A DNA stretch of 32,000 nt, taken from Candidatus Saccharimonadota bacterium (GTDB taxonomy: Archaea; Nanohalarchaeota; Nanosalinia; Nanosalinales; Nanosalinaceae). The stretch lies in the NCBI RefSeq assembly GCF_047555085.1, contig NZ_CP180230.1, positions 150,001 through 182,000 of the forward strand, given 5' to 3'. Below the pieces are notes generated by a model that ran no database searches, was not told the origin of the DNA, and was given only the letters and a program-made list of their open reading frames with translations. Below are positions 1 to 32,000 of this stretch, one piece after another. The first letter of the stretch is position 1; every line of letters begins with the position of its first letter. A program made the translations under genes and the position numbers.

Positions 1-526
1 CACTGGCGGAGGAGCGATGTTCGCGGAGCCGGGAAACGTCATAACGTACTCGATATATATTCCAAAGGATCAGGTTCCTGAAGATGTTGAACAGAGTTAC
101 AGGGAGCTGGATAATTTTGCTGTAGAGGCCTTACAGGATCTTGGTGTGGAGGCGAGTTACAGGCCTCTGAACGATATTGAACATGAGGACGGCAAGCTTG
201 GGGGTGCTGCGCAGTTGAGGAAGAATGATTCTGTGCTGCATCATACTACGATGAGTTATGATCTTGATACGGAGGAGATGCTCCGTGTACTCAGGATTGG
301 AAAGGAGAAGGTTTCAGATAAAGCAGTGAAATCTGCCGAGAAACGTGTATCACGTATCACAGATCACATCGATAGTTCAAGGGAGGAAGTTATCGAGAAG
401 ATTATTGAGAAGTTTGTCGAAGGGAAAGAGTACGAGGAAGGAGGCCTTTCGGAGGATGAGTTAAGCAGGGCGGAGAAACTGGCTGAGGAAAAGTTTTGCT
501 CCAGTGATTGGAACAGGAAACTCTAG
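1..526 (+). CDS. lplA: lipoate-protein ligase A family protein, 5'-truncated by window edge
   Basis: The frame is open from nt 2 (T-G-G-G-A-M-F...), so the GGGA(V/M)(F/Y) adenylate-binding motif sits at the window edge. Downstream, GKLGGAAQLRK resembles the catalytic-lysine K-x-SG-x-AQ segment of the LplA/LipB/BirA-fold ligases. Stop TAG at 524-526. Confidence 0.75.
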   Translation, partial: TGGGAMFAEPGNVITYSIYIPKDQVPEDVEQSYRELDNFAVEALQDLGVEASYRPLNDIEHEDGKLGGAAQLRKNDSVLHHTTMSYDLDTEEMLRVLRIGKEKVSDKAVKSAEKRVSRITDHIDSSREEVIEKIIEKFVEGKEYEEGGLSEDELSRAEKLAEEKFCSSDWNRKL

Positions 527-580
527 GTTATACTCTGGTTTCCGGTTATCATTTAACACTCATTTACATCTTTCCAATGT

Positions 581-1483
581 ATGAGACCGAAGGTAAAAGG
601 ACTTCACCACATCACAATCATCTGCGGAGAACCCGGTAAAAACGCTGATTTCTACATCGATGTACTGGGCATGCGGATGGTGAAAAAAACCGTTAACCAC
701 GACGCACCGGAACTGTACCATTTATTCTACGGAGATGCAGAGGGAACACCGGGATCCAGCGTAACATTCTTCCCGATGATGGCGGACAACCAGGGACAGC
801 CAGGAACAGGCCAGGTGACGGAACTAGGCCTCAGAATCCCGGAAAACTCGCTGAGTTACTGGAAAAACCGTCTACATGAAAACGATGTAACTTACGGAGT
901 CGAAAATTTGAGAGGCCTGGAAACTTTAACTTTTGAAGATCCTGACGGCCTTGACCTCAGATTGATACCGGGCAACGACGGAGATTTCACGCCGTGGAGC
1001 GAAAGCACAGTGCCGGAGGACAAACAGATAAGAGGCATGAAACAGGTAAAAATTGAGGCCTCTCAGCACGATCTTTCAAGACAGCTGCTGGAGTTGATGG
1101 ATCTTGAGAAAGTCGGAGACAGTTTCTTCCGTGCCAGCGACGGCTCCGGTGTACACCTTGTCGAAAGCAATCAACGTGGAAAGATGGGGCGTGGATCCGT
1201 CCATCACATCGCTTTCAAAGTTGAAGACGAGGAGATGCAGGAGGCCTGGAGAGAGGAACTGCAGAACATGGGCATGATGCCTTCGCCGGTGACTGACAGA
1301 AGATACTTCAAATCGTTATACTTCAGGGAGCCTTCCGGAGTGCTGTACGAGTTCGCGACGATGGGGCCTGGATACACGGCTGATGAGGAACTTGAAGAGC
1401 TTGGAGAAAATCTTGTGCTTCCCGACGAACTTGAAGGCAGGAGAAGGGAGATAGAAAACTCTCTACCGGAGTTCGACAGGTGA
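581..1483 (+). CDS. VOC/glyoxalase-family ring-cleaving dioxygenase (MhqO-like)
   Basis: 300-aa ORF. The N-terminus GLHHITIICGEPGKNADFYIDVLGMRMVKKTVNHDAPELYHLFYGD and the second repeat GSVHHIAFKV...YFKSLYFREPSGVLYEF are typical of two-domain vicinal-oxygen-chelate dioxygenases of the MhqO/YfiE type. Confidence 0.7.
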   Translation: MRPKVKGLHHITIICGEPGKNADFYIDVLGMRMVKKTVNHDAPELYHLFYGDAEGTPGSSVTFFPMMADNQGQPGTGQVTELGLRIPENSLSYWKNRLHENDVTYGVENLRGLETLTFEDPDGLDLRLIPGNDGDFTPWSESTVPEDKQIRGMKQVKIEASQHDLSRQLLELMDLEKVGDSFFRASDGSGVHLVESNQRGKMGRGSVHHIAFKVEDEEMQEAWREELQNMGMMPSPVTDRRYFKSLYFREPSGVLYEFATMGPGYTADEELEELGENLVLPDELEGRRREIENSLPEFDR

Positions 1484-1489
1484 AAAACT

Positions 1490-2092
1490 TTGGTACACTC
1501 AGACAGGCCTGTAATCGAGAAAGGAACTATGGAATCCGGAAAAGCTGTGATAATGATACACGGGAGAGGAGCCACTGCACAGAGCATCCTCAACCTTTCC
1601 GAAAAACTTCCAGAGGCCTACTACATGGCACCGCAGGCCTCGAAAAGGGAGTGGTATCCGAGAAGTTTTCTGGAAAAGAGGGAGAAAAATCAGCCGCATC
1701 TCGACTCCGCACTGAAGAAGATCGATGAACTTGTAGAAGAGGCCTCTGAGAAAGTAGGACGGGAAAATGTTTTCCTACTCGGATTCTCGCAGGGAGCATG
1801 TCTCGCATCAGAGTACGCTGCGTCTAATCCCGGAAGATTCGGAGGTGTGATACTTTTCAGCGGAGGCCTGATAGGAGATAAAGTTGAAAGTTTTGAAGGC
1901 GACATGCAGGGGACGAAAGTTTTCATAGGATGCAGCGACAACGATCCGCATATCCCGCTGGAAAGGGTCAACGAGACAGAGGAAGTTTTCCAGCAGCTTG
2001 GAGCTGAAGTGGAAAAATACATCATGGAGGGCTCACACCACGGAATAGTCGAGTACGAGATCGAGAAGGCCTCGGAGATAATCTCTGGGTAA
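1490..2092 (+). CDS. phospholipase/carboxylesterase-family alpha/beta hydrolase (MhqD-like)
   Basis: Has VIMIHGRG (oxyanion region), the GFSQGA nucleophile elbow (G-x-S-x-G), a late D and a HH pair, and is ~200 aa like dienelactone-hydrolase/carboxylesterase family members. The start is uncertain: TTG at 1490 or ATG at 1529. Confidence 0.7.
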   Translation: MVHSDRPVIEKGTMESGKAVIMIHGRGATAQSILNLSEKLPEAYYMAPQASKREWYPRSFLEKREKNQPHLDSALKKIDELVEEASEKVGRENVFLLGFSQGACLASEYAASNPGRFGGVILFSGGLIGDKVESFEGDMQGTKVFIGCSDNDPHIPLERVNETEEVFQQLGAEVEKYIMEGSHHGIVEYEIEKASEIISG

Positions 2093-2225
2093 AAAATTTT
2101 TTCCAGGGTTTATTACTGTACAGGTAATCCGGTTAAATATTTTCGCCGTCAAAGACTTGTACGGAAGCAGGGCCTGAATCTACATATCGAATTTTTCCCA
2201 GGCCTTTTTCTGAGGTGTTTTTCAC

Positions 2226-2456
2226 ATGATAATAATAGATTCAGAGACACGTTACGACGGAGAAAACTACAAGGCGATAGGTGCACACGGCGAAGGCGAC
2301 GAAGAATTTCTGTACTTTGCACAGCCTGTGAAAGATCAGCTTGAAGCACACAGGAATCACGATAAACTGCTGAACGCGTTACTTGACGGCGAAGAAGATG
2401 AAATAGTCAGAGAGGCCTCTCTCGAGCCTTCCTACAGTGAGCCGGATACTTACTGA
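2226..2456 (+). CDS. small acidic hypothetical protein
   Basis: 76-aa ORF with the same acidic composition as its neighbours, flanked by AT-rich intergenic DNA. No recognisable motif. Confidence 0.4.
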   Translation: MIIIDSETRYDGENYKAIGAHGEGDEEFLYFAQPVKDQLEAHRNHDKLLNALLDGEEDEIVREASLEPSYSEPDTY

Positions 2457-2483
2457 AAAATTTTTCTTCCGTAAAAATATTTC

Positions 2484-2933
2484 ATGTCCGGCGTTGTCGA
2501 TAATTTCCTGGCTGAACTTGACTGGCAGGAGGTTGCTAAAGATGAATACCTGTCTTCGGATTCGGAGACTCTTGGTGTGGACTGTCTTGGGACGTGTCTA
2601 GGCCTGGCGGTTCATGATCCGAAGACCGGTACAGGCTATCTTTTGCACGCCTCTACCGTCGGAAACGAAGAGCTTGAAAGCCAGGTACAGGAGTTTGTCG
2701 ATGAACTCGATCAGCTCTCGGAGCCGTACGAGGTTCTTGCTGGAGGAACTATGGCCTCACAGTACAATCCTCTTGATGAAGAAGAGTTCACACATCAGGC
2801 TAGAGAAACTGTAGAAAATGTTCTCGACGACGGTGGTATCAGCTACCAGGCCTCGTGGAATGATCCTCCGGTATACAACAGGATGATTGTATCTCCGGAC
2901 TACGGCATACTTTACGACAGGCCTGAAGTCTAG
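2484..2933 (+). CDS. CheD-like (chemoreceptor glutamine deamidase fold) protein
   Basis: LGTCLGLAVHDPKTGTGYLLHA parallels the CheD core LG(S)C(V)A(V)xxxDPxxxxGxxxH, which carries the catalytic Cys and His. It is followed by AGGTMAS (CheD has AGGA-x-MF) and a C-terminal G-I...D...R-x-h segment. Similarity was judged by eye only. Confidence 0.45.
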   Translation: MSGVVDNFLAELDWQEVAKDEYLSSDSETLGVDCLGTCLGLAVHDPKTGTGYLLHASTVGNEELESQVQEFVDELDQLSEPYEVLAGGTMASQYNPLDEEEFTHQARETVENVLDDGGISYQASWNDPPVYNRMIVSPDYGILYDRPEV

Positions 2934-3448
2934 TACTTCGGATTTTTCTCATCTACATCGTTGAGAAAGTTTTCGTGACGTGCCATGAGGAAGAAAAGAT
3001 CGCTCAAACGATTTATGTATGCCAGGACTTCTTCACGGAGTTCTTCTCTTTCGTCAAGCCTCACTATTTTCCTTTCTGCTCTCCGGGCGACGCTTCGGGC
3101 CTGATGGAGATGAGACGCACTTTTGCATCCTCCTGCCAGTATAAATTTTCTTAGAGGCGGGCATTTGTCCTGGTACCTGTCGCAGAGATCTTCCAGTCTG
3201 TCGATATTTTCCTGTGAAACTTTAACGTCGGGATCCCTGTTCGCAAGTTCGGCCTGGAGAATATGCAGCTCGTTCTGAATTTCCTCCAGTTCATCTTCTT
3301 TCTCCTCTGTGTAGCTGCGGCAGAGGCCTGTCAAAGAGTTCAGTTCGTCGACTGTTCCGTAGGCCTCGATTCTTTCGCTGCTTTTCGATACTCTTTCGCC
3401 GGAACTTAGATCTGTCCGGCCTCTGTCTCCTCTGCCTGTGTATACCAT
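2930..3448 (-). CDS. pduO: ATP:cob(I)alamin adenosyltransferase, PduO/MMAB type
   Basis: The N-terminus MVYTGRGDRGRTDLSSGERVSKSSERIEAYGTVDELNSLTG is the hallmark PduO-type motif (T-x-x-GD-x-G-x-T). The ~170-aa length also fits. Its stop overlaps the stop of the convergent upstream gene (CTAG at 2930-2933). Confidence 0.85.
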   Translation of the reverse strand: MVYTGRGDRGRTDLSSGERVSKSSERIEAYGTVDELNSLTGLCRSYTEEKEDELEEIQNELHILQAELANRDPDVKVSQENIDRLEDLCDRYQDKCPPLRKFILAGGCKSASHLHQARSVARRAERKIVRLDEREELREEVLAYINRLSDLFFLMARHENFLNDVDEKNPKY

Positions 3449-3488
3449 TTGCCCAGTAAATAAAATCGTTGCCAGTCTTAATTAGCTT

Positions 3489-4142
3489 ATGGCAGGCCTG
3501 AAAGAATCGGAGCTTGATGAGCTTAAAAATCGTTTGAGGGAAGAGTTCTTGGATTACTACGAGATGGCTGGAGGGAAAAACTATCGTTTCCATCACCTTG
3601 TCAGAGCTCATAGATACGTCGTGAAACTTATCGAGAGGCCTGAGATCAGGGAACTGGATTTTGATCAGAAAGTTCTAGAAGTTGCAGCGCTTTTCCACGA
3701 TATCGGCAGGAAAGAGGATATCGAGGATGGTTTTCTTGATCCTATCGAGGCCCATGAAGGCCACGATGAGACAGGAGAGGAAATCGTCGACGAATACGTT
3801 GAAGAATTTCTGACGGAGGAACAGTTAGCGGAAGTCAAGGAGATTATCGGGAATCATCACTCGGAGCCGGAAAGAGTTGAAACAAGGATTTTGCAGGATG
3901 CGGACACACTGGGTATTTTCGGCCCGTTGAATATCTGGCGGATGATCCATTATGCATCTGACAATGAGAGGCCTCTTGAAGATACTTTTGAGTATTTCTG
4001 GAGCGAAGGAACTGAGAGAAGGATCAAGAAGATGCAGGAACTGAACTTTGACTGCTCGAAGAGGATCGCCCGGAAAAGAATGAAGGATTTTCAGGAGACA
4101 ATGCAGAGGATCGAGGAAGAACATTTCGGTGAAGACATCTAG
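3489..4142 (+). CDS. HD-domain metal-dependent phosphohydrolase
   Basis: Has H...LFHDIGR (the HD dyad) plus later GNHH and DADTLG motifs typical of the HD superfamily. Confidence 0.75.
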   Translation: MAGLKESELDELKNRLREEFLDYYEMAGGKNYRFHHLVRAHRYVVKLIERPEIRELDFDQKVLEVAALFHDIGRKEDIEDGFLDPIEAHEGHDETGEEIVDEYVEEFLTEEQLAEVKEIIGNHHSEPERVETRILQDADTLGIFGPLNIWRMIHYASDNERPLEDTFEYFWSEGTERRIKKMQELNFDCSKRIARKRMKDFQETMQRIEEEHFGEDI

Positions 4143-4144
4143 AA

Positions 4145-4153
4145 TTTTAAATT
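4145..4153 (+). promoter_or_regulatory. TATA-like box (TTTTAAATT) about 27 nt upstream of the sucC-like GTG start; implies a leaderless mRNA
   Basis: An AT-rich box is centred ~27 nt before the start codon at 4176, with no Shine-Dalgarno sequence between them. The same geometry is seen at 12118-12129 before ATG 12146 and at 13461-13471 before ATG 13494. Confidence 0.35.
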
Positions 4154-4175
4154 CAGAGAACAGAGGTATCAATAC

Positions 4176-5309
4176 GTGAAACTTTACGAACACGAAGCGA
4201 AAAAAATACTTGAAGAGCACGGCCTGGAAACGCCCGGCAAAGGCCTGGAAGAAGACGGTAAACAGTACGTCGTGAAGGCTCAGGTATTCTCCAACAGCAG
4301 GAAGGATAAAGGAGGAATAAAATTTGCTAAAGGGCGTACAGAGGCCGAGGCAGAGAAGCAGGAGATGATAGGAGGCCGTCTTGACTCTGAGGAGATAAAA
4401 AATGTTCTAGTGGAGGAGAAAGTAGACTTCACTGATGAGTACTATGTTTCATTCATGTACGATACAGATACAAGGAATCCTGTCCTGATATTCTCTCCGG
4501 AAGGGGGAACAGGTATAGAGGATCGTGAGGCCTCGAAGCTTTCTTTGAAGGATGATTCTCAGTTCCGTTTCAGGCGTTTCCTAAAGGATCAGGGATTTGA
4601 AGGAAAGGAGATAGTCAGGCTTGCGATGGTTCTTCAGAGTCTTTTCCACGCCTTCCTTGAAGAGGATGCCCGTTTGCTCGAAGTGAATCCTCTGGCGAAG
4701 ACTGAGGACGGTTACGTCGTTCTGGATGCCATGATGGATCTGGAGGACGATGCAGCCTACAGACACGACAGGGACTTCCCTGAGAGAGGTGCTGAAGGCC
4801 AGGAGAAAACTGAAAGAGAGTTAAAGGCCCAGAAGATCGATGAAGATGATCACAGAGGAGTTGCTGGAAAGTACACTGAAATGGATGGAGAAATCGGCAT
4901 GATGCTGGCTGGAGGAGGAGCTTCACTAACGAATATGGATGCATTGATAGAGTACGGCGGCAAGCCAGCGAATTATACCGAGTACGGAGGGAATCCGCCG
5001 ACAGAGAAAGTCTACAGGCTTTCAAAAGTGATAATGTCAAAGCCAAGCCTCAGAGGCCTGTGGCATGTCGGTGGAACGGCGAACAATACGGATGTTGAAA
5101 GAACTATGGATGGTTTCATACAGGCCTTGAGAGAGGAGAAGCCGGATTATCCTATAGTAATCAGGAGGGATGGTCCACATGCGGATGAGGCGTTCGAGAA
5201 GCTGAGAGAGGTCAGGGATGAACTTGATCTGGATATGAAGCTGTTCAGAAACGATAAAGCTATGACTGAGTCGGCTAGAGACTTAATGGAGATGGTGGAT
5301 AGTCGATGA
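4176..5309 (+). CDS. sucC: succinyl-CoA synthetase beta-subunit-like ATP-grasp protein (SucC / citryl-CoA synthetase large-subunit family)
   Basis: MKLYEHEAKKILEEHGLETP and VVKAQV...GGIKFA match the SucC N-terminal ATP-grasp domain. GGGASLTNMDALIEYGGKPANYTEYGGNP matches the SucC C-terminal ligase-CoA motif. GTG start. Confidence 0.8.
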   Translation: MKLYEHEAKKILEEHGLETPGKGLEEDGKQYVVKAQVFSNSRKDKGGIKFAKGRTEAEAEKQEMIGGRLDSEEIKNVLVEEKVDFTDEYYVSFMYDTDTRNPVLIFSPEGGTGIEDREASKLSLKDDSQFRFRRFLKDQGFEGKEIVRLAMVLQSLFHAFLEEDARLLEVNPLAKTEDGYVVLDAMMDLEDDAAYRHDRDFPERGAEGQEKTERELKAQKIDEDDHRGVAGKYTEMDGEIGMMLAGGGASLTNMDALIEYGGKPANYTEYGGNPPTEKVYRLSKVIMSKPSLRGLWHVGGTANNTDVERTMDGFIQALREEKPDYPIVIRRDGPHADEAFEKLREVRDELDLDMKLFRNDKAMTESARDLMEMVDSR

Positions 5310-5956
5310 GTTTGATCCCTGTTTTTGATATAGGAGATACTCTTGTACCTTCGAGAAAGTTTGCTGCACACATAATCGAGGACGAGTTGCGTCAGAGGAA
5401 TCACAGGCCTGTCCACAGTTTTGATCCGGACAAGTTCATGATGTATGATCCGGAGCAGATAAGTCGGTATCTGGAGAAGTACGGAATTGAAGGAGATGCC
5501 GAGAAACTGGCAAATGACTGCCGTGAAAGATACATAGAGGCCTTTGAGGATCTGATGCTGGAGAACGATGTGTTCGATTTCTTCGCTAAATGTAACAGAG
5601 AGTTCGGAACTATAGGTATAGTCAGCGATAACACTTTGAAGGCAAAGGAACTGATGGAAAATCTGCTGAACAAGCATGGAGTCGAGTATGATACTATCGT
5701 TGTATCGGATGAAGTCGGAGTGGAGAAGCCGGATCCCGAGATATTCAAGGCCTTTATCGAGAAACGTGATGAGGAGGCCTCAGAGTTCGTTTACATCGGC
5801 AATGATGCAGAAAGGGATTCTGGCGCAGTTGACGCAGGTATGGAGTTTATCTGGACCACACAGTTCGACAACGTGAACTCAACGTATGAAGGACATGCCA
5901 TAAATGAACTTGATTTCCAGGAGCTTGAGGCTACGATCAGAGAGGTGGAAAAATAG
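5306..5956 (+). CDS. HAD-superfamily hydrolase
   Basis: Motif I is FDIGDTLV (D-x-D/G-x-T), motif II is IVSDN, and motif IV is YIGNDAERD. The start ATG overlaps the sucC-like stop (ATGA at 5306-5309), and its stop abuts the sucD-like ATG at 5957. Confidence 0.7.
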   Translation: MSLIPVFDIGDTLVPSRKFAAHIIEDELRQRNHRPVHSFDPDKFMMYDPEQISRYLEKYGIEGDAEKLANDCRERYIEAFEDLMLENDVFDFFAKCNREFGTIGIVSDNTLKAKELMENLLNKHGVEYDTIVVSDEVGVEKPDPEIFKAFIEKRDEEASEFVYIGNDAERDSGAVDAGMEFIWTTQFDNVNSTYEGHAINELDFQELEATIREVEK

Positions 5957-6853
5957 ATGAGCATATTCGCAGATGAAGACACTAAACTACTAATTCAAGG
6001 GATTACAGGCAGAGCGGCAAGCGAAAAGACACCACACATGATAGATTACGGCACCGATGTCGTTGCAGGTGTGACACCCGGCAAAGGAGGCCAGGAAGTT
6101 GAAGGAGTTCCCGTCTATGACACCGTCCGGGAGGCTGTAGAGGAGCATCCGGAGATCAATACTTCACTCATATATGTTCCTCATTTCGCAGCTAAAGACG
6201 CTATACTCGAGGCCCTGGACTCCGGTGTAAAGAAGATCAATGTCACAACTGAAAGAATCCCTACAAGAGATATGTGGGAAGTACTTGACAGGCTGGAACA
6301 GGAAGACGCTACTCTTGTCGGACCTACAAGCGTAGGAGTCATAAGCCCGGGAAAGGCCAAGATAGGCCCTATAGGAGGAAACAAAGCCGAAGAGGCCTAT
6401 GAAGAAGGCCGTGTGGGGATTATTTCCAAGTCTGGAGGCATGACGACTGAGACAGCTCAAGTCGTCCAGAACGCCGGATTCGGAATATCCACAGCTATGG
6501 ATATCGGAGGAGACAAGATCGCAGGAACAACTTTCGTTGAGGCCCTCCAGATGTTTGAGGAAGACGATCAGACAGATGCTGTCGTCATGTTCGGCGAACT
6601 TGGAGGAACATACGAGAATCAGGTCGCAGAGTTCATGGAGGAGAATCCTGACTTCGATATGCCGGTAGTGGCATTTATCACAGGCGAGTTCACTGAAGAT
6701 ATGCCTACACAGCAGTACGGCCATGCCGGAGCAGTCATCAGAGGCGACAGGGAGAAGCCGTCCTACAAACAGAAGATTCTGAGAGAAGCAGGAGTCCATG
6801 TAGTGGACGTACACCACGAAATCGGCAGTAAACTGGAAGAACTTCTGAAGTGA
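5957..6853 (+). CDS. sucD: succinyl-CoA synthetase alpha-subunit-like protein (SucD / citryl-CoA synthetase small-subunit family)
   Basis: LIQGITGRAASEKTPHMIDYGTDVVAGVTPGKGG is the CoA-binding Rossmann region, SKSGGMTTE is present, and GHAGA is the phosphohistidine loop. Confidence 0.9.
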   Translation: MSIFADEDTKLLIQGITGRAASEKTPHMIDYGTDVVAGVTPGKGGQEVEGVPVYDTVREAVEEHPEINTSLIYVPHFAAKDAILEALDSGVKKINVTTERIPTRDMWEVLDRLEQEDATLVGPTSVGVISPGKAKIGPIGGNKAEEAYEEGRVGIISKSGGMTTETAQVVQNAGFGISTAMDIGGDKIAGTTFVEALQMFEEDDQTDAVVMFGELGGTYENQVAEFMEENPDFDMPVVAFITGEFTEDMPTQQYGHAGAVIRGDREKPSYKQKILREAGVHVVDVHHEIGSKLEELLK

Positions 6854-6874
6854 CAAGAGATAAAATTTTTGAGG

Positions 6875-6892
6875 CCTGAAAACTGTTTCAGG
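6875..6892 (+). promoter_or_regulatory. 7-bp hairpin (CCTGAAA-actg-TTTCAGG) between the sucD-like gene and the first nuclease-like gene
   Basis: Perfect inverted repeat read directly from the sequence. Its 3' arm overlaps the GGAGG Shine-Dalgarno-like element at 6891-6895, which lies 12 nt before GTG 6907. Confidence 0.3.
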
Positions 6893-6906
6893 AGGAAACA
6901 GGAAGA

Positions 6907-7827
6907 GTGGAACAGTTCAGCGTATCAAATCTGGTTGATTACAGATGGATCAGAGATAGAGAGAACTTTGACGATCTGAAAAATTTTCTGGCGCATAATC
7001 TCGCATCTTCAAGCTTCAGAGAAAACAGTCCGACACCAAATTTTTCCAGGATGAGTCAAGATCAGGCCAAAGCAGTCCTGATACATGATTCAGCTCTTGA
7101 ACTGTACAGCGCAGCTGATGAGATGGCCGAAGACATACAGGCCTCTGAGATAAAACAGATTCTTGAATCAAATATTACAGAGGAGACCGGAAGACTGGGA
7201 AGACAGTTCAGAGACTTTGAGGACTCAGGTATATCACGGGAACATGTAAAAAGCGGAAAAATATACGGAAGAAAAGTCGATGATGTTCTTAACAGTATAG
7301 CAGATTTCTACGCAGAATCTCTGCCTCTGGAGGACTTTGAAATACTTCATATAGAAGACGAACTTTCAAACAACAGTTTTACTGGCAGAGCAGATCTTGT
7401 ACGTCGTCTTGATGGAATTACTGAATTAAGAGATGTCAAGACACATTATACAAATGAGCGGCCTATTTTCCCTGTAGATGACTACAAGATATCGGCCTAT
7501 GCTCTGCTTGCTCACGGAGAGGATCTGGAAATCGACAGAGTAGTACTTGAGTATCCTGTGCAGGGACAGCAATACGAGGTAGAGCCTGAGAACTGGCTGG
7601 CCTATATTGCATCGGATGCATCGGAGCTTGAGGCCTTGCTTGAAGATACAAGGCGTTTACAGGCCGATAAACTTGAGGAAGTATATGGGAGGCCTCACCT
7701 GCACTCGGATAGAGAGTACGTTGAAGCTCTTGATGCTGCGGTACACGGCGAGAAAAAGGAGTACGCTAGACGTGCAGCAGAGGAAGTCATAGCAGAAAAC
7801 TTTCCCGAGGCCTCATCTAGATCCTGA
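6907..7827 (+). CDS. PD-(D/E)xK (RecB/Cas4-like fold) nuclease-family protein, paralog A
   Basis: GRADLV (motif II Asp), ELRDVKT (motif III D-x-K) and YKISAYALLA (Q/K-x-x-x-Y helix) occur in canonical order and spacing. The N-terminal SVSNLVDY resembles the Cas4/RecB N-terminus but lacks Cys residues. GTG start with GGAGG upstream. Confidence 0.5.
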   Translation: MEQFSVSNLVDYRWIRDRENFDDLKNFLAHNLASSSFRENSPTPNFSRMSQDQAKAVLIHDSALELYSAADEMAEDIQASEIKQILESNITEETGRLGRQFRDFEDSGISREHVKSGKIYGRKVDDVLNSIADFYAESLPLEDFEILHIEDELSNNSFTGRADLVRRLDGITELRDVKTHYTNERPIFPVDDYKISAYALLAHGEDLEIDRVVLEYPVQGQQYEVEPENWLAYIASDASELEALLEDTRRLQADKLEEVYGRPHLHSDREYVEALDAAVHGEKKEYARRAAEEVIAENFPEASSRS

Positions 7828-7907
7828 TCCATCCTTCTGAACTGGAAAGTAGTTAACGATTAGTGATAAAAGATTTCGAGGCCTGTACATCTCTGGAGGC
7901 GTAAAAT

Positions 7908-8792
7908 ATGTCGGAGAACTTTCAGGGCAATATCCCGGTATCCATGGCTAAACAGGTTTTCAGAGGCATGGAATCGGGTAGAACTGACTTCGTGAAGCAG
8001 GCAGTTGTCGATAAAGGCCTGCCTGTAAGGGATGAAGGTGATTTACCTGTTTCAAGCAACTCCGAGATACTTTTCGGGAAGTTCCCGGAAGAATACGCCG
8101 TGAAAGGCCTTTTACACGATGCAGCTGTTAATCTGTATGCCAGAGAGCAGGATTTCCGTGATCTTGGAGTCGATCCCTCTGAACAGGAGATAATTGAATT
8201 ACTTGAGGGGAGTATCGATGGAACAGGATCGGCGACACCGGAACTCAGGCACAGAGTCAATGAACTGGAGACAAAATATGATTTAAGGCCTGATGAGCTG
8301 CTTCAGTACAGTTTCGGCGATAGAACTGTCTCAGATATGCTTCAGGAACTGGCGGAACACAGGAGCAGAAACTGGCAGCAGGACACTGCAGGTTTTTCAT
8401 CCATAGAGGCCGAAGTACCGGTGTTCCAGAGAGGCCTATCAGGAAGGATGGATCTGGTGCTGTCAGGAGAACAGGATCAGGTAAGAGAGCTCAAGATGAA
8501 GGACTCTGGATCAAGAGAGGACGAGTTCCAGGCCTCTGCCTACTGGCTTATCGCTGAAGGGGAGCCGGAGATCGTTCTGGAGTATCCTCTGACTGATGAA
8601 AGATTGAGCTTTGATCCGGATTCGGACGTGAACGATTTTGATCCACGTGAGTACGCATTCGACGTCTACCGTTCCCGTGACAGAGCCGTTGAGCTTGTGG
8701 AGGAGCTTAGAGGCCTGCAGAGCAAGTACTTCGATTTCTATGATTCACGTGAAAAAGCCACTAGAGAAGCGTTGAAGGAGCTCGAGGTGTAA
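7908..8792 (+). CDS. PD-(D/E)xK (RecB/Cas4-like fold) nuclease-family protein, paralog B
   Basis: GRMDLV, RELKMK (E-x-K), FQASAYWLIA (QxxxY) and IVLEYP align block by block with paralog A, which has LHD/IHD...LY, GR-x-DLV, EL+xxK, SAY-x-L-x-A and VLEYP. GGAGG lies 10 nt before the ATG. Confidence 0.55.
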   Translation: MSENFQGNIPVSMAKQVFRGMESGRTDFVKQAVVDKGLPVRDEGDLPVSSNSEILFGKFPEEYAVKGLLHDAAVNLYAREQDFRDLGVDPSEQEIIELLEGSIDGTGSATPELRHRVNELETKYDLRPDELLQYSFGDRTVSDMLQELAEHRSRNWQQDTAGFSSIEAEVPVFQRGLSGRMDLVLSGEQDQVRELKMKDSGSREDEFQASAYWLIAEGEPEIVLEYPLTDERLSFDPDSDVNDFDPREYAFDVYRSRDRAVELVEELRGLQSKYFDFYDSREKATREALKELEV

Positions 8793-8795
8793 AAA

Positions 8796-9854
8796 TTGGA
8801 TACTACTGAGTTAAGCTGGCAGAAGAATAGAGAGGATTATCTGAAAAAAGCCTATGCAGCCGTCAATGCAGACAATGATCCTGTGCCGTTGAATGAAGCA
8901 GTTGAGAACTGGAACATGCTTACAGGAGAGGCCTCTAAGCATTTCTTCTGGAAATCGCTGGGCCTTTTCAGAATCAACGATAGCCTGGATATTATAGACG
9001 ACTCGGGAGATCACCTGATAGATATAGATACTGATATTTCGCTTGAAGATTTACAGGAAGATATAGAGCTTGTTCCTGGAGACGGAAGAAACGTCAGGAA
9101 GCATAAAAAAAGCGATTACAGAGGATACGGTGATCTGAGTGTTCCTGAAGTTCCACTTTTCATAGCATGGGAACATCTTGACAGGAACGGATACGAAATC
9201 TTTCCTTACGAGGATCCGGAATTAAGAGGCCTTGCAGGCAGAACTGAGTCCTCTGAAGGAGCTGAGGAAAAATGGCTGGGGTTCTACAGTCATGATGGAC
9301 GAAAGCAAAGCAGTTCTTGGATCAATCAGGTTTTCAGAGGCCTCACTGTGGAAGGCGAAGATTTTCTGTCTACTGAAGATGTTTTCAGCGACAGGAATGC
9401 AGAGAACTATGTTGAGAAGATCTGGGAGTCGGAGCCTCTGAAGATCCGGCAGCGACTTAACAGTGTATGGGATGCAGCTCTGGAAACTGTTGAGGAAGAG
9501 CTTCCGAGACGCGTTGAAGAATACGAGGATCGCTGGGGTAACGATATAGATGAAAGAGAGGCCCTGAAGCGGGAGATGCGTTTGATGGCCGGTGACGACG
9601 AGTTCAGAGAGGACGGTGCCTATATAGAGAGAATCGTCCACGGCTACTGGGATGGAGAACTTGAAAGGTATTCGCCGGTTCTTGATCCGTTCCTGGAGAA
9701 TATAGAGTCAACGCCTCTGGAGGAAGGTGACATGCCGTACGGAGAAGCTGTACGTGGCTCTGAAACTTCTGAAGGCAAGAAAGAAAGGAACAGGATGTAC
9801 ATGCAGCATTTCCTTGATCTGGTCTGGCAGATGTCGGAGGAGCGTTACAGTTAA
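8796..9854 (+). CDS. acidic hypothetical protein (352 aa), probably co-transcribed with the nuclease-like pair
   Basis: Long ORF with neighbour-like acidic composition. It starts (TTG) only 3 nt after the upstream stop. No motif recognised. Confidence 0.5.
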   Translation: MDTTELSWQKNREDYLKKAYAAVNADNDPVPLNEAVENWNMLTGEASKHFFWKSLGLFRINDSLDIIDDSGDHLIDIDTDISLEDLQEDIELVPGDGRNVRKHKKSDYRGYGDLSVPEVPLFIAWEHLDRNGYEIFPYEDPELRGLAGRTESSEGAEEKWLGFYSHDGRKQSSSWINQVFRGLTVEGEDFLSTEDVFSDRNAENYVEKIWESEPLKIRQRLNSVWDAALETVEEELPRRVEEYEDRWGNDIDEREALKREMRLMAGDDEFREDGAYIERIVHGYWDGELERYSPVLDPFLENIESTPLEEGDMPYGEAVRGSETSEGKKERNRMYMQHFLDLVWQMSEERYS

Positions 9855-9894
9855 AGGGAAAAATTCTTTACTTTTCGACCACGAAGTATTCTCT

Positions 9895-10602
9895 ATGAGT
9901 AACGACTGGAAGACAGAGATATCTTCAAGCGGAGAAGACGCAGTCATCCGCGGAGAGAAACTGGAAAAAGTAATGGATATGGATTTCTCCGATTCAATAT
10001 GGCTTTTGCTGAAAGGAGAGAAGCCAACTGAAGAGGAATCCGAAATATTCAAGGCGATACTTTCAGGATCAATAGATCACGGAGTAGGAAATCCATCCAC
10101 AGTCTCCGCACGGACAGTTCAGAGCGGAGGAAACGACATGAATACTTCAGTAGCTGCTGGCATAATGGCATTAGGAGACAGCCACGGAGGAGCAATCGAA
10201 GAAGGTATGAAGATTCTCCAGAGTGAAAAATCAGCCGAAGAGATAGTCGAAGAATATCTGGAAAGCGGAGAAAAGATTCCAGGCCTTGGACACAAAGTAT
10301 ACAGCGAAAAAGATCCGAGAACAGAAAAGATACTGGAGAAAGCAGATAGTCTAGGCCTCTCAGGAAGGTATGTCGAGAAAATGAAAGATATTCAGGAGGC
10401 CTTTGCTGATGAAAAAGTCAGACTGGTGATGAACGTCGACGGCGGGATCGCAGCAGTTATGAGTGATATGGACTGGGATCCTGAGCTTGGGAAAGGATTC
10501 TTCATAATCGCAAGGACGCCAGGATTAGTGGCGCACGTCAGAGAGGAGATGGACAGGCCTGATTTCAGGAGAGAGGACGGTGAATACACCGGTGAACAGT
10601 GA
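9895..10602 (+). CDS. truncated citrate-synthase-family protein (citryl-CoA lyase / ATP-citrate-lyase C-terminal-domain-like)
   Basis: LGDSHGGA (citrate synthase GPLHGGA region), GLGHKVYSEKDPR (signature G-[FL]-GH-x-VY-x-x-DPR), MNVDGG (catalytic Asp region) and ARTPGLVAHVREE are all present. The ~235-aa length lacks the N-terminal third of true citrate synthases. I chose ATG 9895 because the longer 9727 ORF overlaps the previous gene with a basic, non-neighbour-like peptide. Confidence 0.7.
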   Translation: MSNDWKTEISSSGEDAVIRGEKLEKVMDMDFSDSIWLLLKGEKPTEEESEIFKAILSGSIDHGVGNPSTVSARTVQSGGNDMNTSVAAGIMALGDSHGGAIEEGMKILQSEKSAEEIVEEYLESGEKIPGLGHKVYSEKDPRTEKILEKADSLGLSGRYVEKMKDIQEAFADEKVRLVMNVDGGIAAVMSDMDWDPELGKGFFIIARTPGLVAHVREEMDRPDFRREDGEYTGEQ

Positions 10603-10939
10603 AGATCCTGTCTTTGGATTCAGCGTACTGAAGCAGGATTTCTCCGACATTGATCTTACAGAAGACGATGTCGACAGGATGCTCTCCAGAACAGGAAACG
10701 GCCATGTCATGGAGGATGTCGAGGACTGCAGTGTAAGACTGGAAGTTTACGGAGAGGACGGAGATTTCAATTACGAAGTCAGAGTAATGTATCATGACGG
10801 CCCGGACTGGGATGACCCCACTATAGGAGAGACAGATAAGATCCACTCTGCCAGTACGAAAACATACAGAGGAGAAGTACCTGAGGGCACGGAAGTGTAC
10901 AGAGAAGCCCGAAAAATAGAGGAAAGCATGTTCCGATAA
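10580..10939 (+). CDS. small acidic hypothetical protein
   Basis: 119-aa acidic ORF whose GTG start overlaps the end of the upstream gene. The start is uncertain and no motif was recognised. Confidence 0.4.
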   Translation: MNTPVNSEDPVFGFSVLKQDFSDIDLTEDDVDRMLSRTGNGHVMEDVEDCSVRLEVYGEDGDFNYEVRVMYHDGPDWDDPTIGETDKIHSASTKTYRGEVPEGTEVYREARKIEESMFR

Positions 10940-10964
10940 AAAAGAGAAGAATTTTTTGGAGCCT

Positions 10965-11498
10965 TCAGAGCTTGCTGTTGATCTCCCTCAGTTCCTGAAG
11001 GATCTCCTGAAGGACTTCATCTCTTGAGGCCTCTCCTTCGGAACTATCCGTCTTTATCCTCTTGTTGATAAGATCCTGAACTTTCTTCGGCTCTCTGATA
11101 CTTCTGAAACGCATCTCGACTCCCTGACCTCCTGCAGTCGAGATCTCAACGTTTCCGTAGCCAAAGTAGTTGCCGAACAGGCCCTGTGAGAACGAAATGT
11201 TCTGTATCTTGTCGAAGCCGATCTTCTGTACATCCCGTGAAAGCACGCCTTTCTTCCTGTAAACTCCGTTAGATGTCACAACGTAGTACGTGTTCTTCAC
11301 GCTGAGATAGGCTCCGATTATAATCAAGAGGCCTACTCCAAAGATTGACAATGGAAGGCCTATAATCACAGCCGGAATAACGCTTTTGATACGCGGCTGG
11401 CCCTTCCACTGGATTTCTTCATCCGAGTCAAGTGAAAGCCAGTCAAACTCTTCCATGTTCAGAAATTTGCTGTTCAACTGGTTTAATACTTTTTCCAA
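10965..11498 (-). CDS. membrane protein with bacterial-type PH domain (bPH_2/YdbS-YdbT-like)
   Basis: EEIQWKGQP is followed by a two-helix hydrophobic hairpin (VIPAVIIGLPLSIFGVGLLIIIGAYL). Then YYVVTSNGVYRKKGVLSRDVQKIGFDKIQNISFSQGLFGNYFGYGNVEI matches the bPH_2 pattern. An alternative start at ATG 11456 would fit a shared divergent AT-box near 11483. Confidence 0.7.
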   Translation of the reverse strand: MEKVLNQLNSKFLNMEEFDWLSLDSDEEIQWKGQPRIKSVIPAVIIGLPLSIFGVGLLIIIGAYLSVKNTYYVVTSNGVYRKKGVLSRDVQKIGFDKIQNISFSQGLFGNYFGYGNVEISTAGGQGVEMRFRSIREPKKVQDLINKRIKTDSSEGEASRDEVLQEILQELREINSKL

Positions 11499-11516
11499 CT
11501 AAGTTTTCTATTGTCG

Positions 11517-11834
11517 ATGAGTCAGGACCACACCGAATACAGATCCCGACTGGGAAAAGTTGCGATAGCCACATCTCATATAGAGAGGCAGAGGAACGAC
11601 TCCAGCGACTGGGAGATACTCGAGAGAAACTTTCCAGATCAACTTATCGCAGATCAGGTCCACTTCTCAAACATCAAACAGGTAACTTACACCGAAGGCT
11701 CAACATATCCATACATCGAGTTCGAACTGGAAGATGTCAACAAAAAAATGTTTTTCTCAATCGGAGATCCATACAAGGAAATATTCAAAGAACTCAAGGA
11801 ACGACTGGCAGCTTACAGACAGGCCTACCAGTAA
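11517..11834 (+). CDS. hypothetical protein
   Basis: ~105-aa ORF (ATG 11517; the ORF track starts at TTG 11511). I preferred it over the overlapping basic, Cys/Arg-rich 11432-11917 ORF. No motif recognised. Confidence 0.45.
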   Translation: MSQDHTEYRSRLGKVAIATSHIERQRNDSSDWEILERNFPDQLIADQVHFSNIKQVTYTEGSTYPYIEFELEDVNKKMFFSIGDPYKEIFKELKERLAAYRQAYQ

Positions 11835-11874
11835 AAATCTCTCTACAACCGATATTTTTTGGAAGAAAAACTGA

Positions 11875-11895
11875 GAGCCATGCCAAGCATGGCTC
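11875..11895. terminator. 9-bp perfect hairpin (GAGCCATGC-caa-GCATGGCTC), possible terminator downstream of tRNA-Glu
   Basis: Inverted repeat read from the sequence. On the minus strand it is followed by a T-rich run (GTTTTTCTT). Function is inferred only. Confidence 0.3.
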
Positions 11896-11981: not shown

Positions 11982-12056
<75 letters not shown>

Positions 12057-21212: not shown

Positions 21213-21238
21213 TGAAAGGCCCCGTTAGAGGCCTTTCA
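21213..21238 (-). terminator. terminator hairpin after S-layer paralog 2 (TGAAAGGCC-ccgttaga-GGCCTTTCA)
   Basis: Perfect 9-bp stem 12 nt after the stop at 21250, followed on the minus strand by a T-rich tract (CTTTTTTCTTTCTCTTTTTATTTT). Confidence 0.55.
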
Positions 21239-24490: not shown

Positions 24491-24684
24491 GTTTTAGAAT
24501 CCTTCTTTCGTTAATCAAAACTCTTAGAACTTTACAGAGAGGCCTGAAAATGTCTTTCCGGGCTTCTATACAAACTATATTTTACAGGTTTTCAATCTTT
24601 TTCTAGAGGCCTGAAAATCTTTCTCTGACTTATTGAGGCCTGTTTGAATCTTTATGAACTTTTAGAGTCTGAAAAATCTTTCCC
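24491..24684. repeat. array of 4-6 degenerate direct repeats, consensus ~T(T/C)TAGAGGCCTGAAAAT-CTTTC
   Basis: Copies read directly from the sequence:
- 24536-24559: AGAGAGGCCTGAAAATGTCTTTCC
- 24603-24625: CTAGAGGCCTGAAAATCTTTCTC
- 24631-24656: TATTGAGGCCTGTTTGAATCTTTATG
- 24661-24684: TTTAGAGTCTGAAAAATCTTTCCC
- weaker copies at 24491-24510 and ~24522-24535
Related copies lie at 27001-27035, 27049-27074 and 6866-6890. Confidence 0.5.
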
Positions 24685-25189
24685 AGCATTGTTCGCCCAA
24701 CTTCGAACAGGAGTACAGGCCTCTACGTAAAGTTTTACAGGGAGAGAAAAGTTCTGGGGAAAGTTGAGGAATTCTGTATGACTGTTCACGCCGATTTTCC
24801 GCATCCTTATTTATTACTTCGGGATGAATGACTCGGTATAGGTTATGTTATCACTGACATTGATGTTGGTGGCAAGGGAGCTGGTACAGAGCTCCAGGAT
24901 CATGCTCGCATTCTAGAACTTTCCTAATTTCTTCATCAAAAATTTTTCCCGGTTCTACAATCGCCTAGAGGCCTCTATACGGAAAATATAAAAGCAAGCC
25001 CGTTTTTTGTGTAATCCGGTGAGGAAGATTCCTGGAGAACCAATAAACCAATAAGTCGAAGCAGGAGTTTTGGGGATGGTCGATAAGTACAGCTAGCTCT
25101 TCAAAAAGCTGGTATAAAAAGAATGGCTCTAGTGGACTTAACGCTAATCACTCAATTTATGGGCTCTCTAACTCTCTGATTATGGGATA

Positions 25190-30407: not shown

Positions 30408-30452
30408 AGATAAATTATAACTTGAAAAAGATAGAGGCCTGTTTCTATTTCT

Positions 30453-30989
30453 ATGCCATCAGGAAGTTTCACAGGCTCACGTGTAGTGGTGAGAGACGAT
30501 GAACACGCAGAGGAAGTACATGATGAACACTACTACGGGAAGTACAACGACGATGTACTGGAGCTTTCGATGGTAGAGGCCTATCACCTGATAGACAGGG
30601 ATCTTATAGAAGTCGAGAACGATGGTGAGAAGCTTTCAAAGGATGAGGCCTTCGAGCTTTTCACTTCAAAAGATGAAGAATTCTATCACAAGTATCAGGC
30701 CTACAGTGATCTACGGGAGAGAGGTTTTATCGTCAAGACAGGTTTCAAGTTTGGAGCGCATTTCCGTGTGTATCCGAGAGGTGTCAATCCGTATCAGGAA
30801 GGCCCTAAGAAGCAGAAGCAGCATACTAAATGGGTTGTCCATGCTGTCCCGGAGAACGATACTTTGAGTTTTCAGGAGATGAGCCGTGCGGTACGCCTGG
30901 CGAATAATATCCGTGCTACGATGTTGTGGGCGGTAGTAGATAACGAGTCAGGTGTAACTTACTACGAAGTCGATAGACTGACTCCATAG
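30453..30989 (+). CDS. endA: tRNA-splicing endonuclease
   Basis: YSDLRERGFIVKTGFKFGAHFRVYPRG (G-x-KFG-x-x-F-x-x-Y), the catalytic H in HTKWVVHAV, and SFQEMSRAVRLANNIRATM (R-x-a-x-x-x-K/R region) are present. The ~180-aa length fits the homotetramer-type EndA. Confidence 0.85.
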   Translation: MPSGSFTGSRVVVRDDEHAEEVHDEHYYGKYNDDVLELSMVEAYHLIDRDLIEVENDGEKLSKDEAFELFTSKDEEFYHKYQAYSDLRERGFIVKTGFKFGAHFRVYPRGVNPYQEGPKKQKQHTKWVVHAVPENDTLSFQEMSRAVRLANNIRATMLWAVVDNESGVTYYEVDRLTP

Positions 30990-30998
30990 AAAATTTTT

Positions 30999-31931
30999 TC
31001 AGGCCTGGAAGAGATCGATTCTTGACGTTCTGCTGACGTTTTTCCGCATACGTTTTCCTATGATCAGGCCTATGATGAGGCCTGCGAGGTGTGCGGAGCT
31101 GGCGAATCCGCCGATCACAGGCAGTGTTGTTCCCATAAGTTTGGATGTCAGGTTCAGTACCTCGATTGCTCCGAAGGCTTTCACAGCTGTCTGAATTTTC
31201 ATAGGGATAACAAAGTACAGCAGTACTTCTGCCTGTGGATAAAGCATTGCTACTGCGCCTACTGCAGCAACTACTGCTCCTGAGGCTCCGACAGCTGGTG
31301 TCATTGTTCCTATGCCTGATGAGAATGCTGCGCCGTGCAGTAAACTGTAAATATTGCTCATCAGGACGTAGGCAAGGCTTGAGATAAGGCCTGTACCGAT
31401 GTAGAACTTCAGCATCTCTTTGCTTCCTATAGCTTTCTCCAGTATGCTTCCGAAAAAGTAAAACGTTATCATGTTGGCCATCAGGTGGAAAAGGCCTGCG
31501 TGAAGAATCATAACGGTCAGCAGACTCCATGGATGGGTAACAAGATACCCGACGGCAGGATTCAGTACAAGATTGTTGAAGTAACCGGGGACTATGAACT
31601 GCAGCATGAAAGAGAAAGATGTCAGTGCTATGATCGATAAAGTGTAATTATTTTTTAGCGTGGAAAGAATATCGTTTCCAAGGCCTGTACTTCTGCGATT
31701 CCTGTGAACTTCCTTTTTCACGTCCTGAGACTCGAATTTTTCATCGAACCATTTCTCATCAGAGGCCTCTTCTTTTTCCTCTCCCTTGTTCAGGTACTCC
31801 TCTTTCTTCCCTGAGTCAAGGCCTTCACAGTCGTGATTCTCCGGTAGACGGTGCTCCGAACAGAACTTTTCCCCGCAGTAATGGCAGGTAAAGCTCATAG
31901 TCTGCTTGCCGCATTCGGAGCACTCGGCCAT
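30999..31931 (-). CDS. rhomboid-family intramembrane serine protease with N-terminal AN1-type zinc finger
   Basis: The N-terminus C-x2-C...C-x-x-C...C-x2-H-R-x5-H-x-C (CSECGK...CHYCGEKFCSEHRLPENHDC) is an AN1 finger. The membrane core has HAGLFHLMANM (H-x4-H-x3-N), GASGAV (catalytic G-x-S-G) and a late AHLAG (catalytic His). Confidence 0.8.
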   Translation of the reverse strand: MAECSECGKQTMSFTCHYCGEKFCSEHRLPENHDCEGLDSGKKEEYLNKGEEKEEASDEKWFDEKFESQDVKKEVHRNRRSTGLGNDILSTLKNNYTLSIIALTSFSFMLQFIVPGYFNNLVLNPAVGYLVTHPWSLLTVMILHAGLFHLMANMITFYFFGSILEKAIGSKEMLKFYIGTGLISSLAYVLMSNIYSLLHGAAFSSGIGTMTPAVGASGAVVAAVGAVAMLYPQAEVLLYFVIPMKIQTAVKAFGAIEVLNLTSKLMGTTLPVIGGFASSAHLAGLIIGLIIGKRMRKNVSRTSRIDLFQA

Positions 31932-32000
31932 ACAGAAGAACTACTCACGTATCTTTTTATCAATCTTCATACATCAGATCTCCAGTTATTCCCGACATAT

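Follow-up and report, generated by a model that had tools for sequence, protein, structure and literature searches.

Introduction

Highly iterated palindromes (HIPs) have been puzzling in cyanobacteria for about 30 years, and biased repair, nucleoid selection and an uptake signal are all still argued as their basis. HIP1 (GCGATCGC) is a cyanobacterial 8-mer whose core, CGATCG, is methylated, and hexameric alternate HIPs (GGCGCC, GCCGGC, GCsGC) appear in genomes that have the cognate methyltransferase (PMC4390886). What HIP1 does is disputed: it has been regarded as a by-product of repair (Elhai), as the outcome of nucleoid-linked selection (PMC5861425), and as a methylation-dependent transformation or uptake signal (10.64898/2026.06.24.733823). 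Here, we analyze the hexameric palindrome AGGCCT in a stretch of 32,000 nucleotides (the window; positions 150,001 to 182,000 of contig NZ_CP180230.1, assembly GCF_047555085.1, numbered below from its first letter) from Candidatus Nanosalina sp. VS9-1 (taxid 3388566), a DPANN nanohaloarchaeon whose chromosome comprises 1,046,238 bp. Nanohaloarchaea are DPANN symbionts of haloarchaea.

An earlier note on this DNA, made from the letters alone, drew attention to the abundance of AGGCCT and supposed the motif to be undescribed; HIP1 and the alternate HIPs, a close analogue, were missing from it (PMC4390886, PMC5861425). Our literature searches likewise found no report of AGGCCT enrichment in nanohaloarchaea and none on strain VS9-1, and AGGCCT is not mentioned in the two nanohaloarchaeal methylome papers. 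The enrichment is real, strong and apparently unreported, and is best classed as an archaeal form of the highly-iterated-palindrome phenomenon. The reading that we favor, with a probability of roughly 0.42, is that AGGCCT is an archaeal HIP-type palindrome serving as the recognition site of a sequence-specific double-stranded-DNA protein, likeliest a methyltransferase of the restriction-modification (R-M) type.

Results

Enrichment of the complete AGGCCT hexamer

The earlier note had counted about 125 copies of AGGCCT by eye where base composition would predict about 6-8. The exact count is 125 in 32,000 bp (3.9/kb), which makes AGGCCT the most frequent hexamer of the window, and the expectation proved equally sound, at 6.7 copies under a zero-order model and 6.42±2.64 (maximum 16) in 100 dinucleotide-preserving shuffles; the excess is 18.7-fold over the former and 19-fold over the latter. 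The spacing then quoted, one copy per 250 bp, holds as a mean, with the qualification that the copies are not uniformly distributed, 85 of them lying in the first 18.1 kb and 4 in the 6 kb of two S-layer-like genes. AGGCCT ranks first among all hexamers under Markov models of orders 1, 2 and 3 (z = 64, 32 and 12.8, respectively). Under a maximal-order model, which had been proposed as a check, no signal is left, since it is taken up by the 5-mers contained in the motif, and this model is therefore an unsuitable test here.

The signal belongs to the full hexamer, as the earlier note maintained. When the 64 palindromic hexamers are compared, AGGCCT stands at 18.7-fold and the runner-up at 2.4-fold, and GGCC outside AGGCCT occurs 93 times against 94 expected. 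One-base variants, estimated earlier at some 5-15 copies each, number between 4 and 16 (AGGCCC 16, GGGCCT 12, AGGCCG 11, CGGCCT 11, AGGCCA 16, TGGCCT 4). The window avoids other GC-rich palindromes: GGGCCC and GCCGGC are absent (5.1 expected each), and the observed-to-expected ratio is 0.18 for CGCG and 0.23 for GCGC. The degenerate motif GDGCHC, described as an R-M target from Ca. Nanohalococcus occultus SVXNc, has a ratio of 0.45 in the window and one below 1 in most nanohaloarchaeal loci as well.

Around the window's sites the flanks favor T at -5 to -3, A at -2 and any base but T at -1; when five enriched genomes are pooled, the flanks hold at most 0.13 bit per position, and the common determinant is the bare hexamer. 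An extended consensus, AGAGGCCTCT, had been put forward with five full copies listed; the total is 7, those at 1738 and 3967 having been overlooked. As the true motif this consensus is overstated and was rejected, being weak and confined to this lineage.

The force responsible acts at the DNA level, not on protein sequence. Shuffling synonymous codons with the protein kept, one of the checks suggested previously, gives 13.4±3.6 copies against 100 observed in coding sequences (CDS; z = 24), and shuffling codon order within the CDS gives 7.5, so that AGGCCT exceeds the synonymous shuffle 7- to 7.5-fold. The copies fall in the three codon phases in the proportion 15/45/40, encoding R-P (15), [E/K/Q]-A-[S/Y/F/L/C/W] (45) and x-G-L (40), and the examples given for each phase (positions 126, 161 and 442) are correct. 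Genes of both strands carry the 101 sites that lie wholly in CDS (28 kb); 23 sites are intergenic (3.9 kb) and one crosses a boundary, with a density of 4.7-6/kb in intergenic DNA against 3.1-3.6/kb in coding DNA. Finally, the symmetry of the flanks accords with recognition of double-stranded DNA. It is on these codon-preserving shuffles, the three phases, the two strands, the denser intergenic DNA and the symmetric flanks that the DNA-level conclusion, anticipated in the earlier note, rests.

The same observations bear on the possibility that AGGCCT is a by-product of codon usage, of amino-acid or dipeptide bias, or of an assembly artefact. Some abundant palindromes elsewhere are indeed codon-driven: in the same shuffle test at other loci, CTCGAG, GAGCTC (Caldarchaeales), TTCGAA and GCCGGC are explained by codons (1.0- to 1.5-fold), the Caldarchaeales ratios for CTCGAG and GAGCTC being 1.0-1.4 with copies chiefly in phase 0. 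For AGGCCT, the excess over the synonymous shuffle in all phases, the higher intergenic density and the recurrence of the enrichment in independent metagenome-assembled genomes (MAGs; L005, L019 and L063, below) refute such a by-product, to which we give a vanishingly small probability.

A different palindrome behaved in an intermediate way in this test. TCCGGA is the commonest palindromic hexamer in nearly all loci from Leptospirillum/Nitrospirae MAGs (L020-L039, L049, L062), with up to 52 copies in 21 kb, and stays 2.0- to 2.5-fold above the synonymous shuffle (z = 10-18) in all three phases; it is a weaker, possibly analogous bacterial iterated palindrome.

Near-saturation of compatible positions and its effect on proteins

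The comparison set comprised 26 nanohaloarchaeal loci and the window, about 390 kb of nanohaloarchaeal DNA, in which labels such as L001 and L003 denote individual loci. We call a position compatible if the amino acids encoded there permit AGGCCT by synonymous codon choice. The enriched set consists of four genomes, those of the window, L005, L019 and L063, the last three being independent MAGs from different studies; 14 non-enriched relatives provide the baseline. L005 corresponds to JBDGSM01, L019 to JAWOFP01 and L003 to CP046106. Occupancy of compatible positions was as follows.

Window: 99 of 138 occupied (72%); about 5 compatible positions per kb
Four enriched genomes (window, L005, L019, L063): 211 of 312 (68%); 5.09 compatible positions per kb
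L003 and L013: 43 of 141 (30%); 4.06 compatible positions per kb
14 non-enriched relatives: 40 of 602 (7%); 3.46 compatible positions per kb

Many genes of the window are occupied at 100% of their compatible positions, and the odds ratio, expressed in natural-log units, gives an effective bias of about 3.4. In the enriched genomes the compatible peptides are also 47% commoner (5.09/kb against 3.46/kb; p = 9e-11), and alignments reveal sites of the window that arose through amino-acid changes (EE or EP to RP, KK to RP). Because compatible peptides are in excess and substitutions have created sites, the force must be strong enough to alter proteins.

Tests of how sites arise

One way to generate sites would be a drive by very-short-patch (VSP) repair, a possibility raised in the earlier note, in which a 5-methylcytosine (m5C) methyltransferase acts with a T:G-specific endonuclease or glycosylase that turns AGGTCT and AGGCTT into AGGCCT. 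In whole-sequence counts the corresponding transition neighbors (AGGTCT/AGACCT and AGGCTT/AAGCCT) do stand at 0.55-0.61 of the relatives' level, a deficit that fails once context is controlled. At compatible positions they make up 22 of the 101 non-site states in the enriched genomes and 115 of the 562 in the relatives (Fisher p = 0.79), which rejects a two-fold depletion at p = 0.002 and a three-fold depletion at p = 1e-5, and at motif positions 4 and 5 of compatible sites T is no rarer than A or G. Moreover, states two and three bases off are depleted in equal proportion, the outer A/T bases are beyond the reach of such repair, and its known effects are about 1.3-fold, not 16-fold. VSP drive as the creative force is thus largely refuted, and we hold it to be highly improbable as the explanation. 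The lack of an inner C-to-T decay excess while outer transitions pile up could nonetheless reflect a maintenance role of T:G repair.

Non-site states one, two and three bases off occur in the proportion 47:41:13 in the enriched genomes and 234:241:87 in the baseline (p = 0.61). Since one-off states are not lost relative to two- and three-off states, models of near-site conversion are disfavored, and since the non-site states keep their baseline proportions, the bias must bear on the complete hexamer, by selection or an equivalent drive. The sole anomaly among the non-site states concerns the outer transitions GGGCCT and AGGCCC, which account for 13 of 101 states against 4 of 562 in the baseline (13 against 0.7 expected; p = 2e-8); outer transversions and the products of inner C-to-T change show no excess. 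Overall, outer one-base variants stand at 1.9-5.4 times the relatives' level and inner variants at 0.5-1.1 times. Either the reader protein tolerates R...Y ends, or T:G repair guards the inner cytosines.

Occupancy is also independent of neighboring sites: the median distance to the nearest other site is 111 bp for occupied and 102 bp for unoccupied positions (p = 0.46). This independence disfavors coverage, even-spacing and saturating-uptake models, and selection for coverage or spacing was rejected because no neighbor dependence was detected. It likewise bears on Elhai's proposal of a strand-discrimination signal for methyl-directed mismatch repair, under which hemimethylated AGGCCT would guide a MutH-like nickase and selection or a ratchet would raise its density. 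One site per about 250 bp is the density of GATC in E. coli, and the enrichment of outer-position variants is what a ratchet predicts. The model, however, predicts saturation near 1 site/kb and redundancy of nearby sites, whereas the density here, about 4/kb, is some four times that ceiling and neighbor-independent, and GGCC by itself is not enriched; a repair signal of this kind appears very unlikely.

The fixation bias resembles selection and favors the hexamer as a whole, position by position; it has nearly saturated the synonymous options and shifted the proteins.

Patchy distribution among nanohaloarchaea

VS9-1 has no close relatives in the collections: 8 of 10 proteins looked up are singletons at 90% identity, the best relative contigs (S9-cluster) share 70-76% nucleotide identity with the window, and a metagenome scan yielded 4 loci, all distant. 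Within the comparison set the density of AGGCCT varies widely.

Strong (window, L005, L019, L063): 3.4-3.9 sites/kb
Intermediate (L003, L064): 1.0-1.7 sites/kb
Weak (L001, L002, L012, L013, L014, L068, L069): 0.5-0.8 sites/kb
Background (remaining 13 loci): 0-0.3 sites/kb

Of the related genomes, in which the earlier note had proposed to repeat the count, L005, L019 and L063 thus show the signal strongly, and 13 loci stand at background. Among orthologous genes saturation runs continuously from 0.79 down to 0. Enriched and non-enriched genomes interleave in four gene trees, in which L003 and L005 fall together and L019 lies far from them, and the window's nearest relatives by several genes (L001 and L013) are only weakly enriched. 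Because of this interleaving, the trait must have been gained or lost several times, with the same hexamer each time.

Alignments show that site positions are largely lineage-specific. At shared compatible positions the sites of L003, L005 and L013 are nested in those of the window (6/6, 4/4 and 4/4; best p = 0.037) and those of L019 look independent of them, on small numbers and with synonymous divergence saturated. This weak nesting, together with sites that are spread window-wide and strand-symmetrically and a selection-like bias on the whole hexamer, would suit a binding site, a possibility also raised in the earlier note, for an abundant nucleoid-associated or chromosome-organizing protein, with a high site density maintained by selection in the service of compaction or segregation, the view that Xu et al. 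took of HIP1. Contiguous 6-bp recognition free of flank information is, however, atypical of architectural proteins, loss and gain between close lineages would be unexpected of a core chromatin component, and a spacing signature is absent; we judge this explanation unlikely.

AGGCCT-rich viral contigs were discarded as related cases, their copies lying in collagen-like tandem repeats from non-halophiles. A separate viral contig, L096 (IMGVR_UViG_3300031867_007516), also comes from a non-halophile by its balance of acidic and basic residues and carries 22 dispersed copies in 10.8 kb, about 8 times the expectation, that do not form a tandem repeat.

Sites and genes along the window

The window encodes lipoate ligase, cobalamin adenosyltransferase, HIT, NUDIX, ZIP and PAP2 proteins, citryl-coenzyme A (CoA) synthetase/lyase-like proteins, ribosomal proteins S9, L13 and L18e, RNase HII, a tRNA-splicing endonuclease, a rhomboid protease, three tRNAs and two large S-layer-like proteins; neither a DNA methyltransferase nor a restriction enzyme is among its encoded products. 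Its features with respect to AGGCCT are the following.

1..18129: dense region of housekeeping genes, 85 sites at about 4.7/kb; in most genes 67-100% of compatible positions carry the motif
5957..6853, plus strand: AGGCCT-poor CoA-ligase alpha-like gene (1.1/kb; 1 of 3 compatible positions occupied)
6872..6877: copy in an intergenic spacer, 9-45 nt ahead of a start codon and preceded by a T-rich tract that resembles a TATA box or a terminator
17682..17712, both strands: bidirectional terminator-like hairpin between convergent genes, with AGGCCT in each arm (17686, 17703)
17724-20873 and 21250-24120, minus strand: two tandem AGGCCT-poor S-layer-like genes (Pfam S_layer_C; 0.95 and 0.35 sites/kb)
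21213..21238, minus strand: terminator-like hairpin just 3' of the S-layer gene 21250-24120, formed by AGGCCT (21229) and a degenerate AAGGCCC and followed by a U-tract
24534..24693, plus strand: three copies of an AGGCCT-bearing repeat of about 34 nt, spaced 59-67 bp apart (repeat search, family D1; no Rfam match)

The S-layer genes hold merely 4 sites in 6 kb, and 4 of their 13 compatible positions are occupied against 95 of 125 elsewhere (Fisher p = 0.0015). They use codons as the window does generally, on which ground we rejected the idea that they are compositionally foreign DNA, and occupancy in the ribosomal-protein genes is normal (5/7); neither foreign origin nor high expression alone accounts for the depletion. 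The two paralogues share an upstream element on the minus strand (21030-21066 and 24395-24430), AGGCCT-TTA-N-CAAAGG-(A/G)TTTAAAA-GGT-GGG, in which a TATA-like box comes about 17 nt downstream of AGGCCT; between AGGCCT and the start codon lie 190-300 nt. The 1.1 kb upstream of the second S-layer gene (24121-25242) contains no convincing open reading frame (ORF), 7 copies of AGGCCT and several long-range inverted repeats.

Both hairpins fold stably. That at 17682-17712, in both arms of which the earlier note had correctly placed the motif, reaches -21 and -21.5 kcal/mol (z = -4.9 and -4.7) with U-tracts on both strands, and that at 21213-21238 reaches -18 kcal/mol (z = -5.1). In AT-rich spacers, such hairpins may do no more than make use of a GC-rich palindrome that is abundant. 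Copies placed like that at 6872 lie at 2200, 7879, 12095, 12131, 26487, 28350, 28398 and 30435. A promoter element was rejected as the primary explanation, since the spacers are short, 3' ends carry copies to an equal extent and 80% of the total lies within genes.

The product of the AGGCCT-poor gene 5957-6853 is 90% identical in amino acids to its counterparts in the weakly enriched L001 and L013 and far from those in L003 and L005, and the product of the neighboring gene 4176-5309 groups with L003 and L005. Its paucity of sites and its tree position suggest that 5957-6853 was imported by recombination from a non-enriched lineage, and the discordant gene trees point to homologous replacement between nanohaloarchaeal lineages.

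Exchange of this kind is one of several observations that would suit an uptake or self-recognition sequence, as the earlier note had suggested, comparable to the uptake signal sequences and DNA uptake sequences (USS/DUS) of bacteria, in which a receptor prefers DNA bearing AGGCCT and site alleles spread by transformation and recombination (molecular drive), with methylation optional. The complete hexamer is favored by whichever mutational route it arises, terminator hairpins are built from pairs of copies as in USS/DUS, certain genes are depleted in AGGCCT, nanohaloarchaea have been proposed to import environmental DNA (PMC10266531), and an uptake signal has now been proposed for HIP1 itself (10.64898/2026.06.24.733823). 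A 6-mer is, however, a poor discriminator, and known uptake sequences are 9-12 bp long, non-palindromic and present at about 1 per kb. At 4 sites/kb, moreover, fragments already carry multiple sites and the gain should drop near neighbors, an effect that is absent, and the one gene that was apparently imported is poor in AGGCCT. An uptake sequence is accordingly a doubtful explanation.

Several further features of this region concern gene content. The genes 4176-5309, 5957-6853 and 9727-10602 encode an ATP-grasp/citrate-binding subunit, the CoA-ligase alpha-like subunit and a citrate-synthase-like C-terminal domain, and constitute a split ATP-citrate-lyase or citryl-CoA synthetase/lyase-like set, whose closest homologues outside Nanohaloarchaea (32-36% identity) are in Leptospirillum/Nitrospirae, users of the reverse tricarboxylic acid cycle. 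A variable insertion at 6907-9854, between genes that are adjacent in most relatives, carries a gene of unknown function and two Cas4/RecB-like PD-(D/E)XK paralogues with 26% mutual identity and weak family matches; a homologue occurs in L003 only, and the other relatives have different genes or none. The PD-(D/E)XK genes (6907-8792) were rejected as the responsible nuclease, since the corresponding locus lacks them in L005, L019 and L063, all of them enriched. The ORFs 8796-9854 and 9727-10602 overlap by 128 bp; relatives match the product of the latter from residue ~59 on, and its true start codon is probably further downstream.

Discussion

A candidate reader of AGGCCT

A sharp, contiguous 6-bp palindrome that lacks flank information is the signature of a Type II R-M-type enzyme rather than of a typical transcription factor or architectural protein. 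The reader of the site would most likely be a StuI-type AGGCCT DNA methyltransferase, either an orphan or part of an R-M system, and a mobile gene for such a methyltransferase or R-M system fits the patchy trait and the interleaved trees; its gain and loss among nanohaloarchaeal lineages would produce the patchy distribution. The alternate HIPs, which follow their cognate methyltransferases, offer a parallel (PMC4390886). An enzyme of this specificity exists in Alcanivorax borkumensis SK2, in which the outer cytosine of nearly all of the 1,674 AGGCCT sites is methylated by an R-M system (PMC12128166). Methylated AGGCCT could then act, site by site, as a tag that distinguishes the cell's own DNA from that of the host or the environment, and a selection-like bias would fix the tag at one site after another. 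Such a role is attractive for these nucleotide-auxotrophic symbionts, though speculative, because nanohaloarchaea have been proposed to import environmental DNA for nucleotides (PMC10266531).

Several points weigh against this reading. The earlier note had suggested a search for a methyltransferase specific for AGGCCT or GGCC; a motif scan found none in the window and 27 nanohaloarchaeal loci (about 390 kb), and a homology search with M.HaeIII gave bacterial enzymes only. R-M target sites are usually avoided, not enriched, and we know of no function whose benefit is additive per site at 4 sites/kb. Nor does this reading account for the depletion of the S-layer genes, whose codon usage is typical. 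Finally, the methylome record speaks for another motif, with the proviso that the kinetics of single-molecule real-time (SMRT) sequencing detect m5C poorly. SVXNc, the only published nanohaloarchaeal methylome, reports GDGCHC and not AGGCCT; it was called from PacBio SMRT kinetics with identification of N6-methyladenine and N4-methylcytosine only (PMC10266531).

A more specific form of the proposal is that AGGCCT is an own-DNA tag of a DPANN ectosymbiont whose reader spares or recombines DNA of its own type and degrades foreign DNA for nucleotides. The system would be mobile among nanohaloarchaeal lineages and would have rewritten thousands of codons within the time of lineage divergence. We consider this version rather unlikely; if it is true, Archaea would have their first uptake or self-recognition sequence, and the HIP1 problem would gain a tractable model.

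Whatever its reader, an independent archaeal case would show that the HIP phenomenon is general. The system offers advantages for study: the genome is 1 Mb, the hexamer is the site of the commercial enzyme StuI, relatives range from 0 to 79% saturation, and some nanohaloarchaea are available in co-culture. Because the trait switches between related lineages, the gene behind it could be found by phylogenetic profiling. A force that alters proteins, with 47% more compatible peptides, bears on how codon usage and protein evolution are modeled for reduced genomes, and it is relevant also to composition-based binning and to the detection of horizontal gene transfer in hypersaline metagenomes.

Comparison with described systems

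AGGCCT shares with Chi, the motif of RecBCD/AddAB, the character of an over-represented short motif marking a cell's own DNA. Chi is asymmetric and oriented with replication, whereas a palindrome has no polarity, and to our knowledge Archaea lack RecBCD. With the StuI-type R-M system of A. borkumensis SK2 the recognition sequence is identical; that genome, however, has about 0.5 AGGCCT/kb and is not hyper-abundant in the motif, and R-M sites are usually avoided. The Dcm/Vsr system of E. coli, in which VSP repair lifts CCWGG, resembles ours in that a methylation-site palindrome is raised by a process at the DNA level, but the effect in E. coli is small and the depletion of T-neighbors that marks it is not found for AGGCCT.

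The USS of Haemophilus and DUS of Neisseria are also comparable. They too are hyper-abundant short motifs in coding and non-coding DNA from which some genes are depleted, their paired copies form terminator hairpins (two examples here), and the force acts on the whole motif and affects the encoded peptides. They differ in being 9-12 bp long, non-palindromic and present at about 1/kb, with an uptake role that has been proven experimentally, whereas AGGCCT is a 6-bp palindrome at 3.9/kb whose occupancy does not saturate with neighbors.

The HIPs share the most. They are GC-rich palindromes, 15- to 300-fold over-represented (AGGCCT about 19-fold), found between genes as well as in every codon phase, with a frequency that can reach about one site per gene or exceed it; the majority of a group's members, though not all, carry the motif; one-base variants cluster at the outer positions; and the core corresponds to the specificity of a Type II enzyme. 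There are differences as well. AGGCCT belongs to a DPANN archaeon and is another sequence with A/T outer bases; its density of about 4/kb is several times that typical of HIP1, with about 70% of compatible positions filled; and it is far patchier, being gained or lost between lineages whose proteins are about 65-90% identical. A methyltransferase accompanies the alternate HIPs, whereas for AGGCCT the cognate enzyme is only predicted, and AGGCCT positions appear mostly unconserved, apart from the weak nesting noted above, whereas Xu et al. (2018) report conserved HIP1 sites. Because its sequence differs from GCGATCGC and from the described alternates, and because its host is not a cyanobacterium, AGGCCT is an analogue of the HIPs rather than a strict member of their class.

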